This document shows positions 7,651 through 57,327 of a DNA stretch of 64,000 nucleotides, in pieces. The stretch lies in NCBI RefSeq assembly GCF_024298765.1, contig NZ_CP101210.1, one strand, 5' to 3'. Both the position numbers and the translations under genes were made by a program. This DNA is from Escherichia coli. Its GTDB lineage: Bacteria; Pseudomonadota; Gammaproteobacteria; Enterobacterales; Enterobacteriaceae. Position 1 is the stretch's first letter; each line of letters begins with the position of its first letter. The notes beneath the pieces were generated by a model. It searched no databases, was not told where the DNA came from, and worked only from the letters and a program-made list of their open reading frames with translations.

Positions 7651-9402
7651 ATGATTCAGGACGCTTTTGTGCGCCAGCGTGCGCGACAACTTTACTGGCA
7701 GGGTTATCCGCCCGCAGAAATATCACGTCTGATGGGAATAAACCCGAACACGATTTATGCGTGGAAAAAACGCGACCAGTGGGATGAAACGCCACCCGTG
7801 CAGCGTGTCACGCAATCCATTGATGCGCGCCTCATCCAGCTTACTGAAAAACAGAATAAAACAGGCGGTGACTTCAAGGAAATAGACCTGCTGACACGGC
7901 AGCTTAAAAAGCTGCATGATGGCCAGCCGGATGTGATTGCCGCAGGAAAGAAAGGCCGGGCGAAAAAACTCAAAAATCATTTCACGCCGGAACAGATTGC
8001 CGCACTGCGGGAAAAAATCATCAGCAGGCTGGAGTGGCATCAGCGGGGCTGGTTTGACTCCCTGACCCTTTGCAGGGAAGCCGGGATACGTAACAGGATG
8101 ATCCTGAAATCCCGACAGATTGGGGCGACCTGGTATTTTGCACAGGAAGCACTGCTGATGGCGCTGCGTGACGATGTGGTGCAACCTTATCAGCGTAACC
8201 AGATTTTTTTGTCTGCGTCGCGTCGTCAGGCGTTCCAGTTTAAAAGCATTATTCAGAAGGCCGCGGCTGAAGTTGATGTGGAGCTGAAAGGGGGCGATAA
8301 AATCATCCTCTCCAACGGCGCAGAGCTGCATTTTCTCGGCACTTCTGCTGCGTCGGCACAGTCCTATACGGGCAATTTTTATTTTGATGAATTCTTCTGG
8401 GTCAGTCGCTTTGCTGAACTGCGCAAGGTGGCTGGCGCTATGGCAACCCTCAGCGGACTGCGGCGCACCTACTTCTCCACGCCATCCACCGAAACGCACG
8501 AGGCATACGCCTACTGGAACGGCGACCGCTGGAACGAGAAAAAGGCCACGCATAAACGCCAGCGTTTTTCTGTGGACTGGAAAACGCTGCATAACGGGCT
8601 TATCTGCCCTGACCGGACGTGGCGGCAAATTGTCACGCTGGAAGATGTGGTTAATCACGGCTGGAAACACACCGATATTGATGAAATTCGTGATGAAAAC
8701 ACCGAAGACGAGTTCCTCAATCTCTATATGTGTGAGTTTGTCCGCGAAGGGGAATCGGCATTTAACCTGAATATCCTGATTGGCTGTGGTGTTGACGGAT
8801 ACGACGACTGGAAAGACTGGAAACCTTTTGCTCCCCGCCCGATGGGGAATCGCCCGGTATGGATTGGGTATGACGCAAATGGCAGCAGTGGCAACGGCGA
8901 CAGCGGCGCTGTGTCCGTGGTGGTTCCTCCGGCTGTTCCTGGTGGCCGTTTTCGAACGGTGGAGACGCGACGCGTTCAGGGGCTGGAGTTTGAAGAACAG
9001 GCCAGAGTCATTGAAGAGTTCACGTGTCGCTACAACGTGGAACACATCGGCATTGATGTGACGGGCGGGAACGGGGAGGCTGTTTATCAGATAGTGAAAC
9101 GGTTTTTCCCTGCCGCTATTCCGTACACCTTCACGCTGTCATCAAAACGGTCGCTGGTACTGAAAATGCTGCAAATAATGCGTGCAGGGCGGTGGGAATA
9201 CGATCGCGCCGAACGCGAGCTGGTCGCGGCCTTTAACGCCGTGCGTAAGGTGAAAACACCGGGCGGCTTTATCACTTACGAAACGGACCGCGCGAGGGGG
9301 ATCAGCCACGGCGACCTTGCGTGGGCAACCATGCTTGCTGTCATTAACGAACCAATTGGCGGCGAAGGAGAAAACGAGCGTTTCACGGTTATGGAGTTCT
9401 GA
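7651..9402 (+). CDS. terminase large (ATPase) subunit (gpP-like)
   Basis: 583 aa, divergent from O, followed by portal with 1-nt overlap, as in P2 P-Q. Confidence 0.85.
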   Translation: MIQDAFVRQRARQLYWQGYPPAEISRLMGINPNTIYAWKKRDQWDETPPVQRVTQSIDARLIQLTEKQNKTGGDFKEIDLLTRQLKKLHDGQPDVIAAGKKGRAKKLKNHFTPEQIAALREKIISRLEWHQRGWFDSLTLCREAGIRNRMILKSRQIGATWYFAQEALLMALRDDVVQPYQRNQIFLSASRRQAFQFKSIIQKAAAEVDVELKGGDKIILSNGAELHFLGTSAASAQSYTGNFYFDEFFWVSRFAELRKVAGAMATLSGLRRTYFSTPSTETHEAYAYWNGDRWNEKKATHKRQRFSVDWKTLHNGLICPDRTWRQIVTLEDVVNHGWKHTDIDEIRDENTEDEFLNLYMCEFVREGESAFNLNILIGCGVDGYDDWKDWKPFAPRPMGNRPVWIGYDANGSSGNGDSGAVSVVVPPAVPGGRFRTVETRRVQGLEFEEQARVIEEFTCRYNVEHIGIDVTGGNGEAVYQIVKRFFPAAIPYTFTLSSKRSLVLKMLQIMRAGRWEYDRAERELVAAFNAVRKVKTPGGFITYETDRARGISHGDLAWATMLAVINEPIGGEGENERFTVMEF

Positions 9403-10448
9403 TGAGCAGAAAAAATAAAAAAGTGCGCATGAGTTCACGCATTGATCTCGCTGATGCGCTCAGGAAAGAATCATCGCTCAGTGCATTCACATTTGATGGT
9501 CCTTATCGCCTGACCGGGCATGACCTGCTGGACAATATGTACTGTGCTGATAACGGGCGGTGGTATGAAACCCCGGTGGACTGGTACGGTCTGGCAAGAG
9601 CCGCCCGGCAAACGTCCTGGCATCAGTCTGCGCTTTACTTTAAGCGCAATGTATTACTCGGTTGCTACATCCCGCACCCGCTGCTTTCCCGGCAGGATTT
9701 CTCGGCGCTGGCGCTGGACTGGTTTGTGTTCGGTAACGCATTCCTTGAGCTTCGGAGCAATATGCTCGGCGAACCGCTTAAATTACGGCACGCCCTGGCG
9801 AAATACATGCGACGCGGAAGCGATCTTGAATCATGGTGGTATGTGCAGGATGGCAAGGACGCGTTCCAGTTTCGCCCTGGCAAAGTGTGCCACCTGATGA
9901 ATCCGGATATTAACCAGGAAATCTACGGCATGCCGGAATATCTTGGCGCATTACTCTCGGCCAGCCTTTCTCATTCGGCGGACATGTTCAGAAAACTGTA
10001 CTACGACAACGGATCCCACGCCGGGTGCATCATCTACATCGGTGCAGCGCAGGTAAACCGCGAAAGCATGGACTCCCTGAAAGAAACGTTACAGGGTGCG
10101 CGTGGTGGTGGTGCATTTAAAAACGTGCTCATTCATGCGCCCAACGGGGGCAAAGAAGGGGTGCAAATTTTGCCGTTCCAGCAGATCACCGCAAAAGATG
10201 AGTTCATGAATGTTAAGGCGGCATCCCGTGATGATGTGCTGGCTGCGCACCGCGTTCCGCCGCAACTGATGGGGGCGATGCCGGGCGAAAAAAGTGCGTT
10301 TGGTGATGTGGAGAAGGCCGCGCGGGTTTACGCAATTAACGAGCTGATGCCCGTCATGGAGGCCATGAAGCACATCAATGACTGGCTTGGCGAAGAGGTG
10401 ATCCGCTTTAACCCTTACGCACTGTTAGACACCCAGCCCACATCCTGA
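9402..10448 (+). CDS. portal protein (gpQ-like)
   Basis: 348 aa, size and position match P2 gpQ; last morphogenesis gene before the cos/cargo region. Confidence 0.85.
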   Translation: MSRKNKKVRMSSRIDLADALRKESSLSAFTFDGPYRLTGHDLLDNMYCADNGRWYETPVDWYGLARAARQTSWHQSALYFKRNVLLGCYIPHPLLSRQDFSALALDWFVFGNAFLELRSNMLGEPLKLRHALAKYMRRGSDLESWWYVQDGKDAFQFRPGKVCHLMNPDINQEIYGMPEYLGALLSASLSHSADMFRKLYYDNGSHAGCIIYIGAAQVNRESMDSLKETLQGARGGGAFKNVLIHAPNGGKEGVQILPFQQITAKDEFMNVKAASRDDVLAAHRVPPQLMGAMPGEKSAFGDVEKAARVYAINELMPVMEAMKHINDWLGEEVIRFNPYALLDTQPTS

Positions 10449-10872
10449 CGCGCTTCGCTTGTCTGCTGCTTCGCCGGGGCATAAAAAATTTATGCCCCGA
10501 CTCTCCAGCTCCTGTATCAGTCAGATAATTTCACGACGCTTTCCTGCTGATTGCCATCATCGACAGTCAGACTCTTACGCAATCCCACCGCGTTGACTGC
10601 ATGTTCTCGCCGTCTCAGTGCGATTTTGACGGCCTTACCTTTCACCCCATCAAATCAAAAGCCCTCACGTCTTTTTCACGCTCAGCGTGAGAAATACAGC
10701 CATTCTGTTGTGTCGCTGCGACATCGTTCAGGGGATGCTATTTACCCCCTGAAACGCGGGCTGTTCCCCCGTCACCTGCGCGCAGAAAAAATGCGTTTTT
10801 TTGTGCACGCACGGATCCTTGACGGATCCAGCCACCATGCGGGCCGGAAGGGCAAAAAGTCGTTCAAAAAAA

Positions 10873-10899
10873 TTGTGCAAATTTGTGCACTATTGTGCA
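10873..10899 (+). promoter_or_regulatory. three direct TTGTGCA repeats at 10-bp spacing with a nearby TATAGT; candidate operator/promoter of the cargo operon
   Basis: TTGTGCA at about 10873, 10883 and 10893 (a fourth copy near 10801); TATAGT at about 10904; about 80 nt upstream of the cargo ATG. Confidence 0.35.
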
Positions 10900-10978
10900 T
10901 TTGTATAGTGAAAAAAATATAGCAGAAAGTATACTTAGCGCCTTGTGGGCTACGTTAACTTTGCAGGAACATTTGGAA

Positions 10979-12358
10979 ATGAAAAAAATCAATAAAGAAG
11001 ATTCTAAAAGAACCTTTTTACGTGGATGGTTGCGATTTCTTCGTAGCGTTGAGAGAGCTAAGAAAAAAAAGCCTGCGCAAGAGAAAAATGGTAGTCTTCG
11101 TTTTTCCGATGAAACAACTCCTGTCCAAAACCAAGTCGCTACGTTCATTGAAAATATATCGATTATAAAAGAGTATGACTCATCAATTCTTCGTCGTGAC
11201 GCAGAGAAGATATTAATACCTAAATATTTTGACTTATATGACAATCCAGAGAAATCTCTGCTATTTATTAGTGCAGCCACAAAATTAATTGCAAGAGGTA
11301 AATGGAAATCATATATTTTTGATTACAAGAAAAACAAAAAACACTGTCTTGGTCTTGAGTGTCTATTAGGTGTTGCTCTTACAGCAGCAAGGCAAAGTAA
11401 TATAAATTTCAAAGATACGATGATTCAGATTAATGGTATCTACCCTAAAGATGAACAGTATCTTGAAATTATCAGGGATGTCGGGCTTGTAAAAGAGATT
11501 AGTAATGCTGCACCAGGTAAAGTTCTGGACTCTACTGAAGCATCGAAAAAAGCGAATCCGAAGAAACGAATCTTCTCTGCTGATAGTATCGGAAAGGAGA
11601 ATGCTTCTGCCTTTGCCCATGACAGAAAAAATGTCACTGCTGAAAAATTTACCGCATACATAAACGAATGCTTAAATGATCATAATTTAAAACTTGTACA
11701 TGAGGCAGAAAAGCATTTAACTTCCTGCATGGGGGAACTCCTTGATAATGCGGAGCGGCATTGTGGGTTAGAGCAACGCCCACGCTGGTATTTGAGAGGT
11801 TTTGTTAATAATAACGTACGAAACCCCATATGTGAGTTGGCTGTTTTCAATTTTGGGAAAACTATCAGCGAAACTTTTGATAATTTACCTGAGGATCATT
11901 TTTCATTAAGTCAACAAGTTAATCCATACATAAATAAGCATATTAAGAAAAAGGGTATGTTTAAGGAAGGATTAACAACAGTAGCGGCCTTGCAAGGGCG
12001 GGTGAGTTGTAAAAACGAGAAAGAAACTGACAGTTCTGGCACCGGAACAATTGAATTATTGAAGTTATTTCAAGATATGCATGATAATCTTAAAAAAATG
12101 GGAAGAGATATTAAAGGTGGGATAAAAATGACTTTAATATCTGGTAGTACTCATATTAACTTTGATGGATCATATAAATTAAAGCAAAGGTTGGTTAATG
12201 ACGAGGAAAGTGACATTTTTACTTACCCTTTTAATGATGTAGGGCTTGAATCTGAACCGGATCGCAACTATCTTAAGCGTATGAAGGATGCTCGATTTCC
12301 TGGAGTTATGATCAATATTCGTTTTCCTCTACCAGAAAACGCCACCCAGCGAACTTGA
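10979..12358 (+). CDS. cargo gene 1: GHKL-type ATPase / anti-sigma-factor-kinase-like protein, 459 aa from ATG 10979
   Basis: N-box-like ELLDNAERHCG, possible degenerate G1 (FNFGKT) and G2 (SSGTGT) boxes; AT-rich; AGGAA 8 nt before ATG; the track start at 10883 is a TTG. Confidence 0.6.
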   Translation: MKKINKEDSKRTFLRGWLRFLRSVERAKKKKPAQEKNGSLRFSDETTPVQNQVATFIENISIIKEYDSSILRRDAEKILIPKYFDLYDNPEKSLLFISAATKLIARGKWKSYIFDYKKNKKHCLGLECLLGVALTAARQSNINFKDTMIQINGIYPKDEQYLEIIRDVGLVKEISNAAPGKVLDSTEASKKANPKKRIFSADSIGKENASAFAHDRKNVTAEKFTAYINECLNDHNLKLVHEAEKHLTSCMGELLDNAERHCGLEQRPRWYLRGFVNNNVRNPICELAVFNFGKTISETFDNLPEDHFSLSQQVNPYINKHIKKKGMFKEGLTTVAALQGRVSCKNEKETDSSGTGTIELLKLFQDMHDNLKKMGRDIKGGIKMTLISGSTHINFDGSYKLKQRLVNDEESDIFTYPFNDVGLESEPDRNYLKRMKDARFPGVMINIRFPLPENATQRT

Positions 12359-12368
12359 GGACAGGTAC

Positions 12369-12713
12369 ATGAAAATGGCTGACATCACCATAGATTTCAA
12401 TAAGTTAGTAAAAGATAGTAACAAGAAACTTTTTGCTGGACGTTCTAATGGGCGCCAGGCCTATGATTACTTTAATATAGGGAAATTTTGCACAACCAGT
12501 AATGATAGATTATATCTATTGATCCCCAAGGGAATTGTTGTATCAAGCTCATACTTTCTAGGTATGCTTGAAACGGTTTTGCCGAAATTTTCTTCGCCTA
12601 GCGAATTTTATAGTCGCACTGTACTTGATGGTCGTGAATATAAAGAAGGTATGCTTTCTGAATTAGATAGAGCTGTAAGGAGAGGCTTACATAAAAATGT
12701 TCCCTTCTTTTAA
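12369..12713 (+). CDS. cargo gene 2: small STAS-like (anti-sigma-factor-antagonist-like) protein, 114 aa
   Basis: GAGGA 8 nt before ATG, overlapping the stop of gene 1; segment LLIPKGIVVSSSYFLGMLETV recalls the SSSF-type STAS-like signature. Confidence 0.55.
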   Translation: MKMADITIDFNKLVKDSNKKLFAGRSNGRQAYDYFNIGKFCTTSNDRLYLLIPKGIVVSSSYFLGMLETVLPKFSSPSEFYSRTVLDGREYKEGMLSELDRAVRRGLHKNVPFF

Positions 12714-13506
12714 AAATATTTTTCAAATCAAAATGACAGCGCTGTCTGTCATTTTTTTTATATTCCCCGCAGCTTGCTCTGTGACAGATTTTTCCAATAA
12801 AGAAAACATTGAATGTAATGAGTCACTTTATCCAAACACGCCTTTTTATATTTCCGATTCAGGACTTAGTGGTATATCATCACCGTTTTTGTTATCCGGA
12901 AACCCGAATGATGGCTTGATGTTTTGTGAAAAGGCAAACGACACCTTTCATAAGTTATCTCTGGCAAGGGATAACAAAAAAGATTTATTTACTAATTATT
13001 TCAAAGATGTTCCAAATTCCTATGATATATATAATATTGTAAAGGTTCCGGAAAATGGTCCAGAGTGGATTTCTATTGGCATCTCTTTATTTGCTTTAGT
13101 TTCATCCTTTGTTATTCCTTGTGTTCAACATAGAAAAGAACGTAAAGAAGCTATTAATGAAGGGTATTGGGTAAGAGAAGTAATTATGCCTAAAATTAAT
13201 GGGTTGGCATTCGATGTTGTGCAAAGTTTTAAAAACTCCATGGCATTATCAGAAGAGGAGTTTCTTAGTGTATTCAGTAATACTCTTTTACCAAAACTAG
13301 GAGAGTTACGGGATTCATTATATTTGTTTAATAGTTTTCCAGAATTAAATGCAGATATTGAAAATCTAGAAAGTATTTGTGACTCCTTGGAGGAAGAAGT
13401 TTCCAATCATATAGACTCGCCTAATGAAATAAGAATTTCTGATATATCAATGTTTCATTCCAAATTAATACAGAAATTAATTTTACTTCATAAGAAGATA
13501 GGTTGA
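12697..13506 (+). CDS. cargo gene 3: membrane protein, candidate effector (N-terminal signal/anchor, one internal TM, acidic C-terminal domain)
   Basis: Overlaps gene 2 by 17 nt; hydrophobic N-terminus TALSVIFFIFPAAC and TM WISIGISLFALVSSFVIPCV; AT-rich. Confidence 0.6.
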   Translation: MFPSFKNIFQIKMTALSVIFFIFPAACSVTDFSNKENIECNESLYPNTPFYISDSGLSGISSPFLLSGNPNDGLMFCEKANDTFHKLSLARDNKKDLFTNYFKDVPNSYDIYNIVKVPENGPEWISIGISLFALVSSFVIPCVQHRKERKEAINEGYWVREVIMPKINGLAFDVVQSFKNSMALSEEEFLSVFSNTLLPKLGELRDSLYLFNSFPELNADIENLESICDSLEEEVSNHIDSPNEIRISDISMFHSKLIQKLILLHKKIG

Positions 13507-13551
13507 TTTTCAAGGCCTCCTTATTCCTAGGGCGGCCTTAGCTCTATATTT

Positions 13552-16344
13552 CTATCGTGTTCGATGCAATAAACTGATTTTTTTGCGAGCATGTTTAGTG
13601 GTTTCACTGATTCTCTGTGCGTGCTCTGCGTCGCGGATGGCGCGCAGCATGTCAGAAAGTACGGTAACGGGTGTTTTCATGGTGTTCTGGTCTTGCTGAA
13701 GTGTGGATGCCAGGCGTGCGGCGGCTTCAGGGTCTGATGCCTCTAGTTGTTCCAGATAGCTGGCGACCGGGTTATGGCGGATCTCCGTGCTGCTTACGCC
13801 GTGATTACGACTCAGGCGTTGCCAGAGCTGCGTGATTCGGCTGTCCGGGCGGGTATCCTGTTTGCGTACAATTTCAAATCCCTGCGGTGCAATGATGCTG
13901 CCGCCAACGTACAGACTGCCGCCTCGTAACAGGTGCTGCATCTGCTGTTCACCGATATGCAGGCCGAGAGATTCAGCAGACTCCCGCCATTCTTTAGCGA
14001 GTAACTCGTGGTTATCAGGCAAAGGCTGTGGCTGTTTGCGGCTCTGTGTCCAGTTCTGCATTTCATCACTGCTGTTTTTTGCCTGTTTGTCACGCAGCGA
14101 ACGCATCAGTGCCCGGCGTTCGTGCCGTTTCAGTGAGCGCATCCATTCATTCACGTCAACGCCTTCAGGAAGCCGCGGCCACGGTGCTGGCCGTTCTTCC
14201 GGCTGTTCTGTCCCGTTGTTGTCCGTTTCCTGTACACGGGGACAGTTATTGCCACGAGTCCAAGGGGCGGCAGGGCCGCCCTGAAGGTCAAAACCATTTT
14301 CGCGGGCGCTGTCTTCCGTTTCCGGTTTACGTCTTACCAGTTTCCAGTTATCCGGATGCGTGCACACACGGGAGGATTCCCCGATGAGTGGTGACCAGAT
14401 CCCGTAAATCTGTACGCTCTGTTCGCCGTAATCATTCAGCTCATCTGCGAGGTCGTAGGCGGTGCGAATCAGGTAGTCTTTGCGTGGAACAAGTACGCCG
14501 CCCTGTTTTTCAATGTAGGTGGCAAAACACCCGGCATCGGCGGCAGCGAGTACCGCATCCATTGCGTCATCTTTCAGTCGTTGCGGGCCTTCCGGGTTGC
14601 GTGCCATCTGGCTGGCAAGGCGGCGCAGTTCACGCCACACCTGACGGGAGGGGATGCCAAAGAACTGGAACTGGCGGACCCGATGAAGGCGCGCCCAGCC
14701 GATGGCGCGCTCCACACTCTCGGCCATTGATTTTCCGGTTTCGTGGTCAACGCGTGGCTTGCCCGTTTTCGGGTCGATGCCATCCACGGCGCGGCTGTCC
14801 AGGTTCTTTCCGATGTAGGTCGCGATATAGCTGGTTGGTGTGCCTTTTGAGCCGTCGACATACTCCGCCTTAAAGCGCGGAGTAATATCATTGCCCAGCT
14901 CGTGGCGGTCTTCCTGAATGGCAATATCGCGGGTGATGGCCACGATGCTGTCGATTTCTTCCGGATGAGCAAAGACCATCATATGCCAGTGCACGGTGCC
15001 GTCATGGTGAGGCTCCACCGTGCGGATGCCATACCAGCGAAGACCGTCGCGGTTCAGTTTTTTGCGGACCGCCGCAAAAAACGTGTTAACCAGGTAATCG
15101 CTGGAGTCGCGCATGGTGGCCCCGTTCCATTTGGGATTCGGATGACCGTTCTCTGTTGTGGCGTGGTATTTTGACGGGCAGGTGACAGTCAGAAACACCG
15201 CTTTGTCGCCACGGGCTTCGGCCAGAAGTTCCAGCCCCTTCATGGTGGCCATCATTTCTGCCTTACGGTGAACCGGGTTACTTACTCCCGCGTAATACAC
15301 CGTCTCGAGATCAATCGTGAACCCGTCTTCGTTTTCCAGCATGAAACTTTTCAGGAAATCGCGTGTTTTCTCGCGCTGTGCGCGAAACTCGCTTAACGCG
15401 TCCTGGCTCAAATAGGGCGATGTTTTTCTGGAAACCAGACAGGCGGCGCGGAGTTGTTCTTCTCTCCACTCGCAACGTAACAGCCACAGTTTGCGTTTCC
15501 ACCATTCCGCACAGGTCAGGCGAAGGATTGCGCCCGGCAGCAGTTCTGTGTCCGGTTCGTTCCTCCGGTCTTTGTCTGTTGTCAGTGCGTCATAATGCGG
15601 AGGCATGGCGTGCAAGTGTAACGCCATGCGGGCCAGCATCTGATACGCCTTCAGCGTTACATCCATGGTCAGCTCGCCATCGGTCGCGCCAAAACCATCG
15701 CAGAGTTTTTCGAAGGTGCTGCTGAACATCGCCGCCGTCATGGTGGCCAGCGTCTGTATCTGGTGTTTGTTGAGTTGCGGCAGGTAAAGCAAATCGTCCA
15801 GGCGTTCACGTCCGGCAAGGGACCGATAACCCGGTGTCAGCCAACGGCTGTCGGTGCGGTCCAGACGTACGAATATTTTGCGCAGGGTTCCGCGCGCGTA
15901 GCGTTCAGCCTGCCAGCTCTTTTTGCCTTTCTGACGATCGGATTCCTGTTTTTTGCGCAGGAAAGAGAGGTGGCGGCTCAGAGGTTCACGCAGATAAACG
16001 GGAAGCACCTTCAGTGTGGCAAAAGCACGGGCCACCGGGTCTTGTTCTGTTGCCTGACGCTTGCTGATGATGCTTTGTGCCAGCTTTTCACGCTGTCCGG
16101 CTTCCTCAAGGGATGCCATGAGTTTTTTACCCACGGTGGATTGTGCGAAAAAGGCTTCCTCCTTCGCTTCCTGTTCTTTCCGGGCCTTTTTGTCCGCCTC
16201 AAGGTAGTAACGGATGGCGCGTTGCAGCTCGGTTTCAGTTTCCTGCCTGCGCTCCGTAAATCTGTCCGGATCAATGGCTGGCCGTGGTTCATTCCAGCTC
16301 CATGCAAACTCACTCATGGCTGGTATCCCGTCACGCGCTGCCAC
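13552..16344 (-). CDS. replication initiation endonuclease (P2 gpA-like, rolling-circle HUH type)
   Basis: 930 aa with HWHMMVFAH HUH-type motif; position between early genes and cargo as P2 A. Confidence 0.8.
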   Translation of the reverse strand: MAARDGIPAMSEFAWSWNEPRPAIDPDRFTERRQETETELQRAIRYYLEADKKARKEQEAKEEAFFAQSTVGKKLMASLEEAGQREKLAQSIISKRQATEQDPVARAFATLKVLPVYLREPLSRHLSFLRKKQESDRQKGKKSWQAERYARGTLRKIFVRLDRTDSRWLTPGYRSLAGRERLDDLLYLPQLNKHQIQTLATMTAAMFSSTFEKLCDGFGATDGELTMDVTLKAYQMLARMALHLHAMPPHYDALTTDKDRRNEPDTELLPGAILRLTCAEWWKRKLWLLRCEWREEQLRAACLVSRKTSPYLSQDALSEFRAQREKTRDFLKSFMLENEDGFTIDLETVYYAGVSNPVHRKAEMMATMKGLELLAEARGDKAVFLTVTCPSKYHATTENGHPNPKWNGATMRDSSDYLVNTFFAAVRKKLNRDGLRWYGIRTVEPHHDGTVHWHMMVFAHPEEIDSIVAITRDIAIQEDRHELGNDITPRFKAEYVDGSKGTPTSYIATYIGKNLDSRAVDGIDPKTGKPRVDHETGKSMAESVERAIGWARLHRVRQFQFFGIPSRQVWRELRRLASQMARNPEGPQRLKDDAMDAVLAAADAGCFATYIEKQGGVLVPRKDYLIRTAYDLADELNDYGEQSVQIYGIWSPLIGESSRVCTHPDNWKLVRRKPETEDSARENGFDLQGGPAAPWTRGNNCPRVQETDNNGTEQPEERPAPWPRLPEGVDVNEWMRSLKRHERRALMRSLRDKQAKNSSDEMQNWTQSRKQPQPLPDNHELLAKEWRESAESLGLHIGEQQMQHLLRGGSLYVGGSIIAPQGFEIVRKQDTRPDSRITQLWQRLSRNHGVSSTEIRHNPVASYLEQLEASDPEAAARLASTLQQDQNTMKTPVTVLSDMLRAIRDAEHAQRISETTKHARKKISLLHRTR

Positions 16345-16703
16345 TCCTGCGAGAAGAGGGTGGAAAGGCGGTTAAATTCAGCGGTGTATTCACTCAGCGA
16401 GGCACACCCGCCAGCAGTGTGATGCGCCAGCATTGCCGCAAATACGGAGGTCGGGGAGTCGTAATACGCCAGCAGTGATTCGCCATGCGGTGTCAGGCAG
16501 CGCAACGCCAGCCCGTGTGGTGTTAAGTCCACGCGGTAGCAGTCGTCTACTGTGAAATAAAGGGTGTCTGCATTCTCCGGTTTTGTAGTGCGTGCTCTGT
16601 TGTCACGACTACGGATGTAGAGATCAAATAATCCCTGAAGAACGGGAGCCAGACGGGTGTCCTGTGTGCGCACCCATCTTGTGAAGTCATGAGCGTCAAT
16701 CAT
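16314..16703 (-). CDS. hypothetical phage early protein
   Basis: 129-aa ORF immediately upstream of A on the same strand, overlapping its start. Confidence 0.5.
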   Translation of the reverse strand: MIDAHDFTRWVRTQDTRLAPVLQGLFDLYIRSRDNRARTTKPENADTLYFTVDDCYRVDLTPHGLALRCLTPHGESLLAYYDSPTSVFAAMLAHHTAGGCASLSEYTAEFNRLSTLFSQEWQRVTGYQP

Positions 16704-16811
16704 GCTGCAATTCTCTCTACTAAGGATGTGCGAAGGCTTCCTGCCAAAAAACTCAGAAGCGGTCGGTTACAGGAATTGGCGTTCTACGAGTAGTTATTGC
16801 TGGCTTGAGGT

Positions 16812-17030
16812 TCATTTCTGTTTAATTCCGTGCATGCTGTAGAAGAAATCAAAAGTGCTATCTATGCGTATCATGAGCTCACGCTGTATCGCTTCTGGTG
16901 TTTCTGGTTCACCTGGCGAGCCAACTCCCGCGAAGAAATCACCGATCTCGCTTTTAATAAGTGCCTTTAGCGTTGCTGAGGAATTCAGGTGTGTGCGGTG
17001 ATGTTTGCGAGTGATTCTTCTCCTGCTCAT
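16812..17030 (-). CDS. hypothetical phage early protein
   Basis: 72-aa ORF in the early operon; overlaps the upstream ORF stop by 4 nt. Confidence 0.45.
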   Translation of the reverse strand: MSRRRITRKHHRTHLNSSATLKALIKSEIGDFFAGVGSPGEPETPEAIQRELMIRIDSTFDFFYSMHGIKQK

Positions 17031-17230
17031 TTGCGTGGATCCTGTACCTGTCGGATAAGATTCACCCGCGCCACATTAGTGGCGCAGAAGTAAGTACCGT
17101 CAGTGAGATAGATGTGGTGTGCATCCTTTTCTGAGCGGTGTTTGTCGATTGTGGTAATCAGGCGTTCGTCGACTTCGTATTCACGTCCTCTGGAAGTGAA
17201 ACGAACGACAGGAAAATGCTTAATTGCCAT
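17027..17230 (-). CDS. hypothetical phage early protein
   Basis: 67-aa ORF in the early operon. Confidence 0.5.
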   Translation of the reverse strand: MAIKHFPVVRFTSRGREYEVDERLITTIDKHRSEKDAHHIYLTDGTYFCATNVARVNLIRQVQDPRK

Positions 17231-17317
17231 TACACCTCCTGGGCGTGTGCGAATACCTCCGCGAATGCGGATTGTTTTTACATTTTCTTATTTAACCTAG
17301 GGTTTTTATTTGCGCTG

Positions 17318-17431
17318 TTATTCGCCAGTGAAAAAGCGGTCAATCTTTTTTACTGAACGAATAATTCGCATAATCCCAATGGCGCAGACCACCGAAATAA
17401 TCAGAACAAGCCATGAGATAAATATACTCAT
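17318..17431 (-). CDS. small hydrophobic membrane peptide (37 aa)
   Basis: ATG at 17431 overlaps the stop of the upstream ORF (ATGA); MSIFISWLVLIISVVCAIGIMRIIRSVKKIDRFFTGE is a single TM helix with a basic tail. Confidence 0.35.
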   Translation of the reverse strand: MSIFISWLVLIISVVCAIGIMRIIRSVKKIDRFFTGE

Positions 17432-17670
17432 GCAATATTCCCCAGCTTATACGGTTCAATATGCTCCCCGCATTCTGCGGCACAGATCAGCTCGGAAAGT
17501 TCGTTAAGTGCATCCAGATCATCAGCGTAAAAAGCCACGTCATACAGACTCCGGATTGCCCTGGTTAATGAGTCACGGGCTGCACGTTCAGCATGAGTAC
17601 CTGATGCACTTAAGCGAAAATAAAAACGCTCAAGTGCTTTGTTTATGAGAGTCTTATATTCTTTGCCCAT
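17428..17670 (-). CDS. hypothetical phage early protein
   Basis: 80-aa ORF in the early operon. Confidence 0.5.
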   Translation of the reverse strand: MGKEYKTLINKALERFYFRLSASGTHAERAARDSLTRAIRSLYDVAFYADDLDALNELSELICAAECGEHIEPYKLGNIA

Positions 17671-17682
17671 CGCAACGCCCTT

Positions 17683-17959
17683 TAATCTGCTTTCTGAATT
17701 TCAGCTTCTGAATCCATGCAGATAATTTCGATATAGGGTTCATCGCCATTAACCTGACGAGCTTTTTCAGCTTCGTTAATTATTTCGCGAACGGTCTGGT
17801 ACGGAAGTTCTACTGTCAGGCGCGTACCGTTCAGATAAACGTAGGTAGCTGCATTTTTTCAGATGGAACTACTCCGTCAATAGCTGATGCGCGTAATAAC
17901 AGTTCACCGCGAAAATCAATAAAGCGGATAAATACACCTTGTGCATGGTCTTTAGTCAT
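17683..17959 (-). pseudogene. small early gene (about 92 aa if repaired) interrupted by a 1-nt frameshift in an A6/T6 run
   Basis: ATG at about 17959 gives 41 codons then stop; an out-of-frame continuation with no start codon runs to TAA at about 17683; adding one A in the homopolymer near 17854-17859 joins them. Confidence 0.4.
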
Positions 17960-17969
17960 AAAGCACCTG

Positions 17970-18320
17970 TTATAAATCAGCCTGTTTAATAAAACTTTGC
18001 CCGCGAAGCAAACGATCGACTGTGCGCAGTGCTTCGTACAATGTAAAATCCTGCCCGAACTGATTATCGCCGTTGCTTAATGCAAAAATGCGGTTTCCGG
18101 TAAACGGATTGCGTGAGCATCTGTGAACCACTATTCCAGCTTTCTCAATCAGCCAGGTGTGTTCGCCGATTTGTTTTACAGCGTGCCCATCTGGTGTTGC
18201 GTGCGTCTCGTTCAGGTTATAGCGATTGTTACTACGTGATGCACTGGTAGCGACGTGGTGTATATGGCGTTCTACGCCATTACGAAATTTGGAGTATGGA
18301 TTATTAGCGTGTTTTTTCAT
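17970..18320 (-). CDS. hypothetical phage early protein
   Basis: 116-aa ORF in the early operon downstream of the cox-like gene. Confidence 0.5.
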   Translation of the reverse strand: MKKHANNPYSKFRNGVERHIHHVATSASRSNNRYNLNETHATPDGHAVKQIGEHTWLIEKAGIVVHRCSRNPFTGNRIFALSNGDNQFGQDFTLYEALRTVDRLLRGQSFIKQADL

Positions 18321-52479: not shown

Positions 52480-53235
<756 letters not shown>

Positions 53236-53281
53236 TTTTTACCGTTGCATCATGTCGCCCAATATGATGCTTGCTCGTACC

Positions 53282-53315
53282 AGGCCCCTGCAATTTCAAC
53301 AGGGGCCTTTTTTTA
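53282..53315 (+). terminator. rho-independent terminator after cutC
   Basis: AGGCCCCTG-loop-AGGGGCCT hairpin followed by a T7 run. Confidence 0.75.
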
Positions 53316-57228: not shown

Positions 57229-57327
57229 GCCTGATGCGCTATGCTTATAAGGCCTACATAGTCCCTGCAATATATTGAATTAGCAAGGTTTTGTAGGCCG
57301 GATAAGGCGTTCACGCCGCATCCGGCA
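57229..57327. repeat. REP/BIME palindromic elements downstream of torZ
   Basis: GCCTGATGCGCTATGCTTATAAGGCCTAC and GTAGGCCGGATAAGGCGTTCACGCCGCATCCGGCA match the canonical REP palindromic unit. Confidence 0.7.

Follow-up and report, generated by a model that had tools for sequence, protein, structure and literature searches.

A three-gene cassette lies in an AT-rich insert of a P2-like prophage of Escherichia coli, within a stretch of 64,000 nucleotides (nt), hereafter the window, of contig NZ_CP101210.1 (assembly GCF_024298765.1). The insert is placed between the portal gene Q and the replication gene gpA. The GC content is 0.32-0.40 across ~10800-13550, compared with ~0.52-0.57 in the flanks, and the AT-rich block is occupied by three open reading frames (ORFs) on the + strand, termed genes A, B, and C here. 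The genes are closely linked. A gap of 10 nt separates the stop codon of A (12356-12358) from the start of B (12369), a GAGGA motif overlaps that stop codon, and the reading frames of B and C overlap by 17 nt. The original prediction, made from the letters of the window, had described an AT-rich three-gene insert with tight same-strand coupling in the tin/old position of P2. The GC profile, ORF list, and flanking genes confirm the insert and the coupling, and the locus is indeed the Q-A hotspot, which was established as a defence hotspot by Rousset et al. 2022 (Cell Host Microbe, PMC9122126) in a survey of 18,150 loci and 169 curated systems.

The boundaries of the insert were mapped by megablast against 5,426 complete E. 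coli genomes. Backbone homology stops at position 451 of the query on the left side, and restarts at ~13593, 41 nt within the 3' end of gpA, on the right side. Because of these breakpoints, at 10899 and ~13593, the insert is assigned to ~10900-13592. The interval given in the original prediction, 10449-13551, does contain the cassette; its first part, 10449-10899, is conserved backbone. The last 41 nt of gpA (13552-13592, ~13 codons and the stop codon) travel with the cargo and not with the backbone, and they belong to the variable region because the right breakpoint falls inside gpA. Of the 5,426 genomes, 22-23 carry the complete cassette, which is always annotated as three hypothetical proteins. 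One record, NZ_CP035836.1, shows 100% identity over the cassette; its ORF coordinates past gpA (~16300-18000) are out of line with the window, which probably stems from another strain or prophage variant than that record (WS1933D).

The same prediction had also proposed a comparison of the Q-A interval across P2-like prophages, and this supported its view of a mobile cargo. The cassette was absent from ~1,120 genomes that share the backbone 10449-10899, and two loci, L020 and L021, revealed allelic replacement of the whole cassette. In both, terminase and portal are 99-100% identical and gpA is 94-97% identical to those of the window, whereas the cassette allele has diverged (A 71%, B 75%, C 45%). 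A nearly identical backbone with a diverged cassette allele shows that the cassette is exchanged as a unit. The coordinates of all features are collected in Table 1.

Table 1. Genes, domains, and sequence elements of the cassette and its flanks; positions refer to the window
Feature	Position	Strand	Description or basis
Gene A	10979-12358	+	459 amino acids (aa); basic N-terminal helix, STAS-like domain, SpoIIAB/RsbW-like GHKL (Bergerat-fold) kinase domain
STAS-like domain of A	11186-11593	+	approximate, ~aa 70-205
GHKL domain of A	11624-12328	+	approximate, ~aa 216-450; N-box E253/N257/H261; G1-like N291-F-G293; G2 G354-T-G356-T
Gene B	12369-12713	+	114 aa; single-domain DUF4325 (STAS-like) protein; AlphaFold2 (AF2) predicted local distance difference test (pLDDT) 89.8
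Codons S59-S60-S61 of B	12543-12551	+	candidate phospho-acceptor site; invariant in 28 homologs
Gene C	12697-13506	+	269 aa; signal/lipoprotein-like peptide, hypervariable periplasmic part, transmembrane (TM) helix, conserved cytoplasmic domain
Lipobox-like Cys27 of C	12775-12777	+	end of signal peptide; Cys invariant in 20-homolog alignment
Hypervariable periplasmic part of C			~aa 28-110; family alignment
TM helix of C	13069-13125	+	aa 125-143; hydropathy, family alignments
Conserved helical cytoplasmic domain of C			aa 144-269; family alignments
Terminator-like hairpin in C	12730-12759	+	10-bp perfect stem AAAATGACAG/CTGTCATTTT, 6-nt loop, then T8 run; terminator scan
AT-rich cargo insert	10900-13592	+	~2.7 kb, exchanged as unit in Q-A hotspot; GC profile, homology breakpoints
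Conserved P2-like backbone 3' of portal Q	10449-10899	+	non-cargo; 93-98% identity to ~1,120 cassette-free E. coli genomes
Portal gene Q	9402-10448	+	ORF, Prokaryotic Genome Annotation Pipeline (PGAP)
Terminase	7651-9402	+	ORF, PGAP
gpA-type replication endonuclease	13552-16344	-	right flank, convergent; ORF, PGAP 'replication endonuclease'
Weak terminator-like hairpin after C	13527-13546	+	in 45-nt gap before convergent gpA stop; terminator scan
Portal terminator-like hairpin	10475-10499		in conserved backbone
Three TTGTGCA repeats	10873-10899		10 nt spacing, ending exactly at backbone/cargo junction; conserved backbone

The start codon of gene A, ATG at 10979, is the one assigned by PGAP in an identical record and agrees with the N-terminus seen in every homolog; a longer ORF, starting from a TTG at 10883, is also present. 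A structure model of A based on 34 homologs reached a mean pLDDT of 83.5 and a predicted template modelling score (pTM) of 0.83, and two distinct fold classes were matched in the PDB. The domain limits were drawn from the order of the secondary-structure elements. The model begins with a single long basic helix, after which comes a linker of low confidence. At the level of sequence, similarity to the SpoIIAB/RsbW class is weak, with HATPase_c_2 matched at E 0.013 in one of the 34 members. The family is large: clustered at 50% identity, it comprises 1,147 clusters under a cutoff of E≤1e-3 and 553 under one of E≤1e-30, and among the matches listed nearly all proteins are 430-460 aa long.

Conservation of the nucleotide-binding motifs was assessed in 166 members of the A family. 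The residues E253, N257, G293, G354, and G356 are present in all of them (166/166 each), and H261 in 165/166. N291 (nt 11849-11851) marks the G1 position, at which 148 members have Asn, 15 have Ser, and 2 have Asp. An Asp in the G1 box is canonical in GHKL enzymes and contacts the adenine base. The Asn of A may point to non-canonical nucleotide binding, and a substitution of this kind could uncover a GHKL enzyme with an unusual choice of nucleotide.

For protein B, a Foldseek search of AFDB50 returned 55 matches at E<=1e-3, nearly all of which are annotated as 'DUF4325 domain-containing protein', with a TM-score of up to 0.95. S60 and S61 of the candidate phospho-acceptor site are retained in remote loci as well. 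A useful reference for this site is the defence system VapKSC described by Chambers et al. 2026 (EMBO J, PMC13373217), which consists of the STAS-GHKL kinase VapK (302 aa), the antitoxin VapS (116 aa, a STAS domain with a short tail, phosphorylated at S48), and the PIN toxin VapC. Sequences of VapS and VapK for comparison came from the supplement of that paper. S60 of B shares a column with the mapped phospho-site S48 of VapS in an hhalign alignment that is collinear at an insignificant E of 0.11, and a multiple alignment that includes the remote loci agrees. S61 aligns with the phospho-Ser motif of the STAS protein TM1081 in a weak profile match (E 0.29). A solo B-like gene (L032:5007-5327, 106 aa, 42% identity), retaining the LFAGRENG and VVSSSYYFG motifs, occurs on the 341,648-bp viral contig IMGVR_UViG_3300011202_000010, and A or C homologs are absent from its vicinity. 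Speculatively, this gene could encode a decoy carried by the phage or a mimic of the antitoxin.

A kinase paired with a STAS protein also brings to mind CapK-CapS, in which CapK, with a helix-turn-helix (HTH) domain followed by STAS and GHKL domains, phosphorylates a conserved Ser of CapS, a repressor composed of a STAS domain and a winged HTH (wHTH), upon binding single-stranded DNA (ssDNA); the pair controls a downstream operon (PMC13373217). By this analogy, A and B would form a transcriptional switch over C or neighbouring phage genes. We regard such a switch as very improbable. It is disfavoured because B, a single STAS-like domain of 114 aa, has no winged-helix DNA-binding domain; the N-terminal HTH of CapK is likewise missing from the model of A. 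Moreover, the 17-nt overlap of B and C within a single transcription unit leaves no room for a regulated promoter.

The divergence of C is much faster than that of A and B. For this protein, no Pfam match, no PDB sequence match, and no relatives of known function were detected. In an alignment of 20 homologs, the strongly conserved block consists of a "PE.GPEW" motif, the TM helix, a juxtamembrane [FY]W[VLM]R[EQ]V motif, and the whole C-terminal domain. The N-terminus is likely outside and the C-terminus inside, because basic residues come after the TM helix. In the third proteins of related loci, homology to C is confined to the TM and cytoplasmic part. The periplasmic part is short or absent in remote members, and the third protein of the remote locus L006 has two N-terminal hydrophobic segments.

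This architecture raises the question of whether C is an envelope sensor or a superinfection-exclusion lipoprotein or membrane protein, for which A and B would provide signalling or regulation in the cytoplasm. The signal peptide and the invariant lipobox-like Cys of C would suit such a protein, and a hypervariable periplasmic part joined to a conserved cytoplasmic part is the pattern expected where a protein meets fast-evolving phage or surface components; the faster divergence of C relative to A and B is in line with this. However, the loss or shortening of the periplasmic part in remote members, together with the two hydrophobic segments in L006, indicates that it is not a conserved requirement. 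The hairpin that would limit C, described below, suits a harmful product better, and the third gene of the validated analogue VapKSC encodes an effector (PMC13373217). We therefore consider a primary role of C at the envelope to be unlikely.

A terminator-like hairpin at 12730-12759, with covariation in its stem, is a new finding of this analysis. It is located 17 nt past the stop codon of B and 33 nt inside C, within the first 21 codons of the latter. Its free energy is -9.9 kcal/mol (z -4.0), and 0/200 shuffles fold as well. The peptide that it encodes in C, MTALSVIFF, is identical in 17/20 C homologs, while both flanks have diverged. In the DNA of diverged loci, the stem and T-run persist and the loop and flanks vary, several of these loci having compensatory changes; in L027, such changes have produced a largely different stem. 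Nine distinct variants, selected because their hairpin lies in the same register, show pairing in 97.8% of cells, compared to 39-67% with the partners slid. Of the ten pairs, four have changed on both sides, and 1-3/500 shuffles reach the observed values. L029 and L030 contain a different hairpin further downstream, and the hairpin was not found in the more distant viral-contig loci L028, L031, and L032 or in the remote systems L003-L006. The element is probably an attenuator that ends most A-B transcripts before C and sets the level of C relative to A and B. Scarcer C transcripts would be expected if C is the harmful part of the system.

Other candidate control elements were also surveyed. 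The TTGTGCA repeats were considered as operators of the cassette, and this was rejected because they sit in backbone that is common to cassette-free genomes; they could represent a recombination joint or a cos-proximal element. A promoter scan of the cassette gave sites no more numerous than chance, and Rfam returned no family within it. Matches above the Rfam gathering threshold to the small RNAs MicL (53007-53314, +), C0465 (39671-39748, -), and ES036 (CssrF; 57250-57292, -) fall in the presumed host-chromosome part of the window and are unrelated to the cassette.

The gene trio is widely distributed. In the sampled neighbourhoods of A homologs, the order of A, B (105-114 aa), and a third ORF is always kept, with short gaps or overlaps, and the third ORF encodes a small membrane protein wherever it is complete. 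This order persists to ~30% identity in A, including the most remote representative sampled among the matches listed. P2-like hotspots contain the trio in Klebsiella (L002, L003), in an E. coli variant and Raoultella (L011, L012), and in Rahnella (L014), where it adjoins a KAP NTPase gene. In Aeromonas veronii (L004), it is carried by a lambdoid prophage and adjoins methyltransferase, SRA-HNH, and NERD genes; in Morganella (L013), it adjoins tail-fibre genes of another prophage type. The Vibrio parahaemolyticus locus (L005) adjoins HsdR (type I restriction-modification, R-M) and AAA_15 genes, and in the most remote representative among the matches listed (L006, L007), a type I R-M locus lies immediately upstream of the trio. 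Type I R-M genes thus directly adjoin the trio twice outside E. coli, an adjacency that has also been reported for capK-capS. Among viral-contig loci retrieved via B, the trio is located between portal and gpA in 16/18, with P2-like backbones whose portal is 49%-100% identical to that of the window. Isolated phages (INPHARED, 50,697 records) yielded no A or B homolog.

The recurrence of the module beside R-M and other defence genes outside prophages argues against a further explanation, namely that the cassette is a kinase-regulated toxin-antitoxin (TA) or stress module that mainly stabilizes the prophage or answers general stress, such as DNA damage, and has no meaningful anti-phage role. Its architecture is TA-like, and the hotspot is also home to cargo unrelated to defence, for example partition systems and a cytolethal toxin; furthermore, 5/8 additional P2-hotspot systems that were cloned gave no protection (PMC9122126). 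One validated analogue nevertheless does protect against phage, although its authors emphasize that stress and immune pathways are not sharply divided (PMC13373217). With the high DefensePredictor score of B, given below, also speaking for defence, we assign a low probability to a module of this kind without an anti-phage function.

Scans of A, B, C, and members of the family alignments with PADLOC, NCBIfam, and Pfam revealed nothing significant. PHROGs matches of the cassette proteins were to unknown-function families only, and sequence-profile searches of the PDB with all three proteins gave no significant match. Among the library checks suggested along with the original prediction, those with PADLOC and Pfam were carried out, and no named system or family matched any of the three proteins. 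The domain guesses made there (GHKL, STAS-like, and membrane protein) were right, as judged by the structure models of A and B and by the signal peptide and TM helix of C. The resemblance to partner switching that it had noted holds at the fold level, where a GHKL kinase is paired with a STAS protein. The cassette is not a canonical partner-switching module, however, because it lacks a sigma factor and a PP2C phosphatase, neither family being matched by the three insert genes in library scans. It also differs from SpoIIAB-SpoIIAA-sigmaF and RsbW-RsbV-sigmaB in that its kinase carries its own STAS-like domain and its predicted output is a membrane protein.

The claim that the system is undescribed had to be given up. 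Its proteins correspond to P2-hotspot system #19 of Rousset et al., listed in Table S5B under the labels HATPase_c and DUF4325 with 155 occurrences and with a signal peptide and 1 TM (Phobius) in protein 3 (PMC9122126). The N-terminal sequence strings of A, B, and C were found in that table, with protein 3 differing by a few substitutions, and the PGAP accessions WP_000723541, WP_000763711, and WP_001548207 have at least 37 occurrences in Table S5A (PMC9122126). In addition, B (WP_000763711.1) is a 'predicted novel defense gene' of DefensePredictor (Science 2026), with a log-odds of 7.46 against a stringent cutoff of 4. There was no sign of the cassette system among the units cloned in the DefensePredictor study, and no validation of it turned up in literature searches by accession or on defence systems with DUF4325, STAS, or GHKL proteins. 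The cassette is already known as a catalogue entry and an in-silico prediction, unnamed and without a proposed mechanism.

For the function of the cassette, we tentatively favour, with slightly less than even confidence, a kinase-controlled toxin-antitoxin or abortive-infection module directed against phage, which follows the logic of VapKSC with a membrane effector and is horizontally exchanged. VapKSC provides ~2 logs of protection against phage Bas42, which is abolished in VapS S48A, VapC D28A, and VapK F54A; ssDNA activates the kinase, and phosphorylation of the STAS protein frees and activates the toxin (PMC13373217). We infer kinase activity of A, an interaction between B and C, toxicity of C, a trigger, and anti-phage activity for the present cassette along similar lines. 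In uninfected lysogens, B would bind the conserved cytoplasmic domain of C in the inner membrane and hold C inactive. An infection-associated cue, for which ssDNA is a precedent, would activate A, a STAS-like sensor domain joined to a SpoIIAB-like GHKL Ser kinase. A would then phosphorylate B at the invariant Ser60/Ser61, where the second helix begins. Phosphorylated B would release C, which would damage or depolarize the membrane and halt phage production as in abortive infection. The hairpin past the B stop codon would keep C transcripts scarcer than those of A and B, so that C remains substoichiometric.

Several lines of evidence are consistent with this module. It is located in the P2 Q-A defence hotspot, it has a precedent in VapKSC, and related trios, with conserved gene order and tight coupling, are found in several prophage types and directly beside R-M, AAA_15, SRA-HNH, NERD, and KAP NTPase genes. 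Further support comes from the folds of A and B, the invariant N-box and G2 box of A, the Ser-Ser motif of B that aligns with VapS S48, the DefensePredictor score of B, the size of the family, the conserved hairpin, and the conservation of the TM and cytoplasmic domain of C relative to its periplasmic part.

Other observations weigh against the proposed anti-phage module. Kinase activity of A is plausible and, like ATP binding, not assured, because nearly all family members have Asn or Ser in place of the G1 Asp. No toxic domain was recognized in C by Pfam and PDB sequence searches, and its hypervariable periplasmic part fits a sensor or surface-exclusion role equally well. A is not detectably related to VapK in sequence comparisons. 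With HMMER, searched both ways, a hidden Markov model of the A family (166 sequences) scores VapK no higher than shuffles, and the hhalign alignment of the two is collinear (A 72-291 / VapK 11-198), with N-box and G1 in register, at an insignificant E of 0.1 and a probability of 0.55%; the only bridge is a weak one through a P4-satellite kinase, described below. A direct sequence link of A and B to VapK and VapS was dropped for these reasons. In the same hhalign alignment, K121 of A stands opposite F54 of VapK, in a loop that varies within the A family, so that the aromatic ssDNA-contact residue of CapK and VapK appears to have no conserved counterpart in A. Finally, system #19 was catalogued with HHpred labels and is absent from the tables of cloned systems, without name or mechanism (PMC9122126).

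A broader proposal, which we put forward as possible but doubtful, is that the cassette is the founding example of a widespread, unnamed immune family with >1,000 clusters at 50% identity in Gammaproteobacteria and beyond. In this family, a divergent STAS-GHKL kinase, its nucleotide pocket non-canonical through an Asn in the G1 box, would sense infection and phosphorylate a DUF4325 protein, thereby setting free a bitopic membrane effector; a conserved intragenic attenuator would set the dosage, and solo B-like decoys of large phages may counter the system. If validated, the kinase-STAS 'phospho-release' principle, so far known for one PIN toxin and one repressor, would reach membrane effectors, and phospho-release would emerge as a general modular control layer of bacterial immunity. 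Validation would also provide a function for part of the large DUF4325 family and for >1,000 clusters of uncharacterised kinases. The cassette is a tractable target for this work, as it measures only ~2.7 kb and offers mutable sites (N257 of A, S60/S61 of B), a dosage-control element, and natural alleles in near-identical P2 backbones.

Comparison with known systems helps to place the cassette. The validated system Rst_3HP ('hp + hp + hp', pFR109) likewise consists of three hypothetical-protein genes in the same P2 hotspot (PMC9122126). Identity with it was rejected, since the pFR109 proteins are 346, 349, and 228 aa long and have unrelated sequences, and A, B, and C gave no PADLOC match. A Detocs-like two-component system was also dropped, as B has the DUF4325 fold and not a receiver domain. 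In phage KIRK of Francisella, Fhv_0046-0048 encode a similar set, namely a hypothetical protein of 293 aa, a DUF4325 protein of 112 aa, and a TM protein of 125 aa (PMC7924643). The KIRK trio adjoins the cI repressor of this temperate phage (PMC7924643).

The P4-satellite system #69 (labelled HATPase_c and DUF4325 in Table S1B of Rousset et al.) carries the same pairing of a kinase-like and a DUF4325 protein on a mobile element. Unlike A, its kinase has the canonical D-x-G-x-G form of the G1 box. Comparison of this kinase with the A profile gave 15.4 bits, confined to the STAS region (best shuffle 6.8), and comparison with VapK gave 11.5 bits, in the GHKL domain (best shuffle 3.2); the kinase forms a weak two-step bridge between A and VapK. 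CapK-CapS resembles the cassette in combining a GHKL kinase with an internal STAS domain and a STAS protein, and the pair is often directly downstream of R-M; the wHTH of CapS and the N-terminal HTH of CapK have no equivalent in B and A.

The closest resemblance is to VapKSC. Both are three-gene operons near defence genes, with a kinase in which STAS precedes GHKL, a STAS protein of ~115 aa, and a third gene in the effector position, and in both, helix 2 of the STAS protein begins with an invariant Ser, which occupies the same column (S60 of B, S48 of VapS). The partners of the PIN group to which VapC belongs were recorded as DUF4325 genes by Matelska et al. 2017. The differences are that the third gene here encodes a membrane protein instead of a PIN nuclease (C has no PIN match), that A is ~150 aa longer than VapK, with a basic N-terminal helix and insertions, and that the G1 Asp of VapK is Asn in A, in the register given by hhalign. 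The cassette shares the architecture of VapKSC without being a member at the sequence level, and its effector is of a different kind. Judged from this architecture, it probably shares the VapKSC logic as well; it is best classed as a variant of the VapKSC-type kinase-STAS-effector arrangement and represents a good candidate for experiment.

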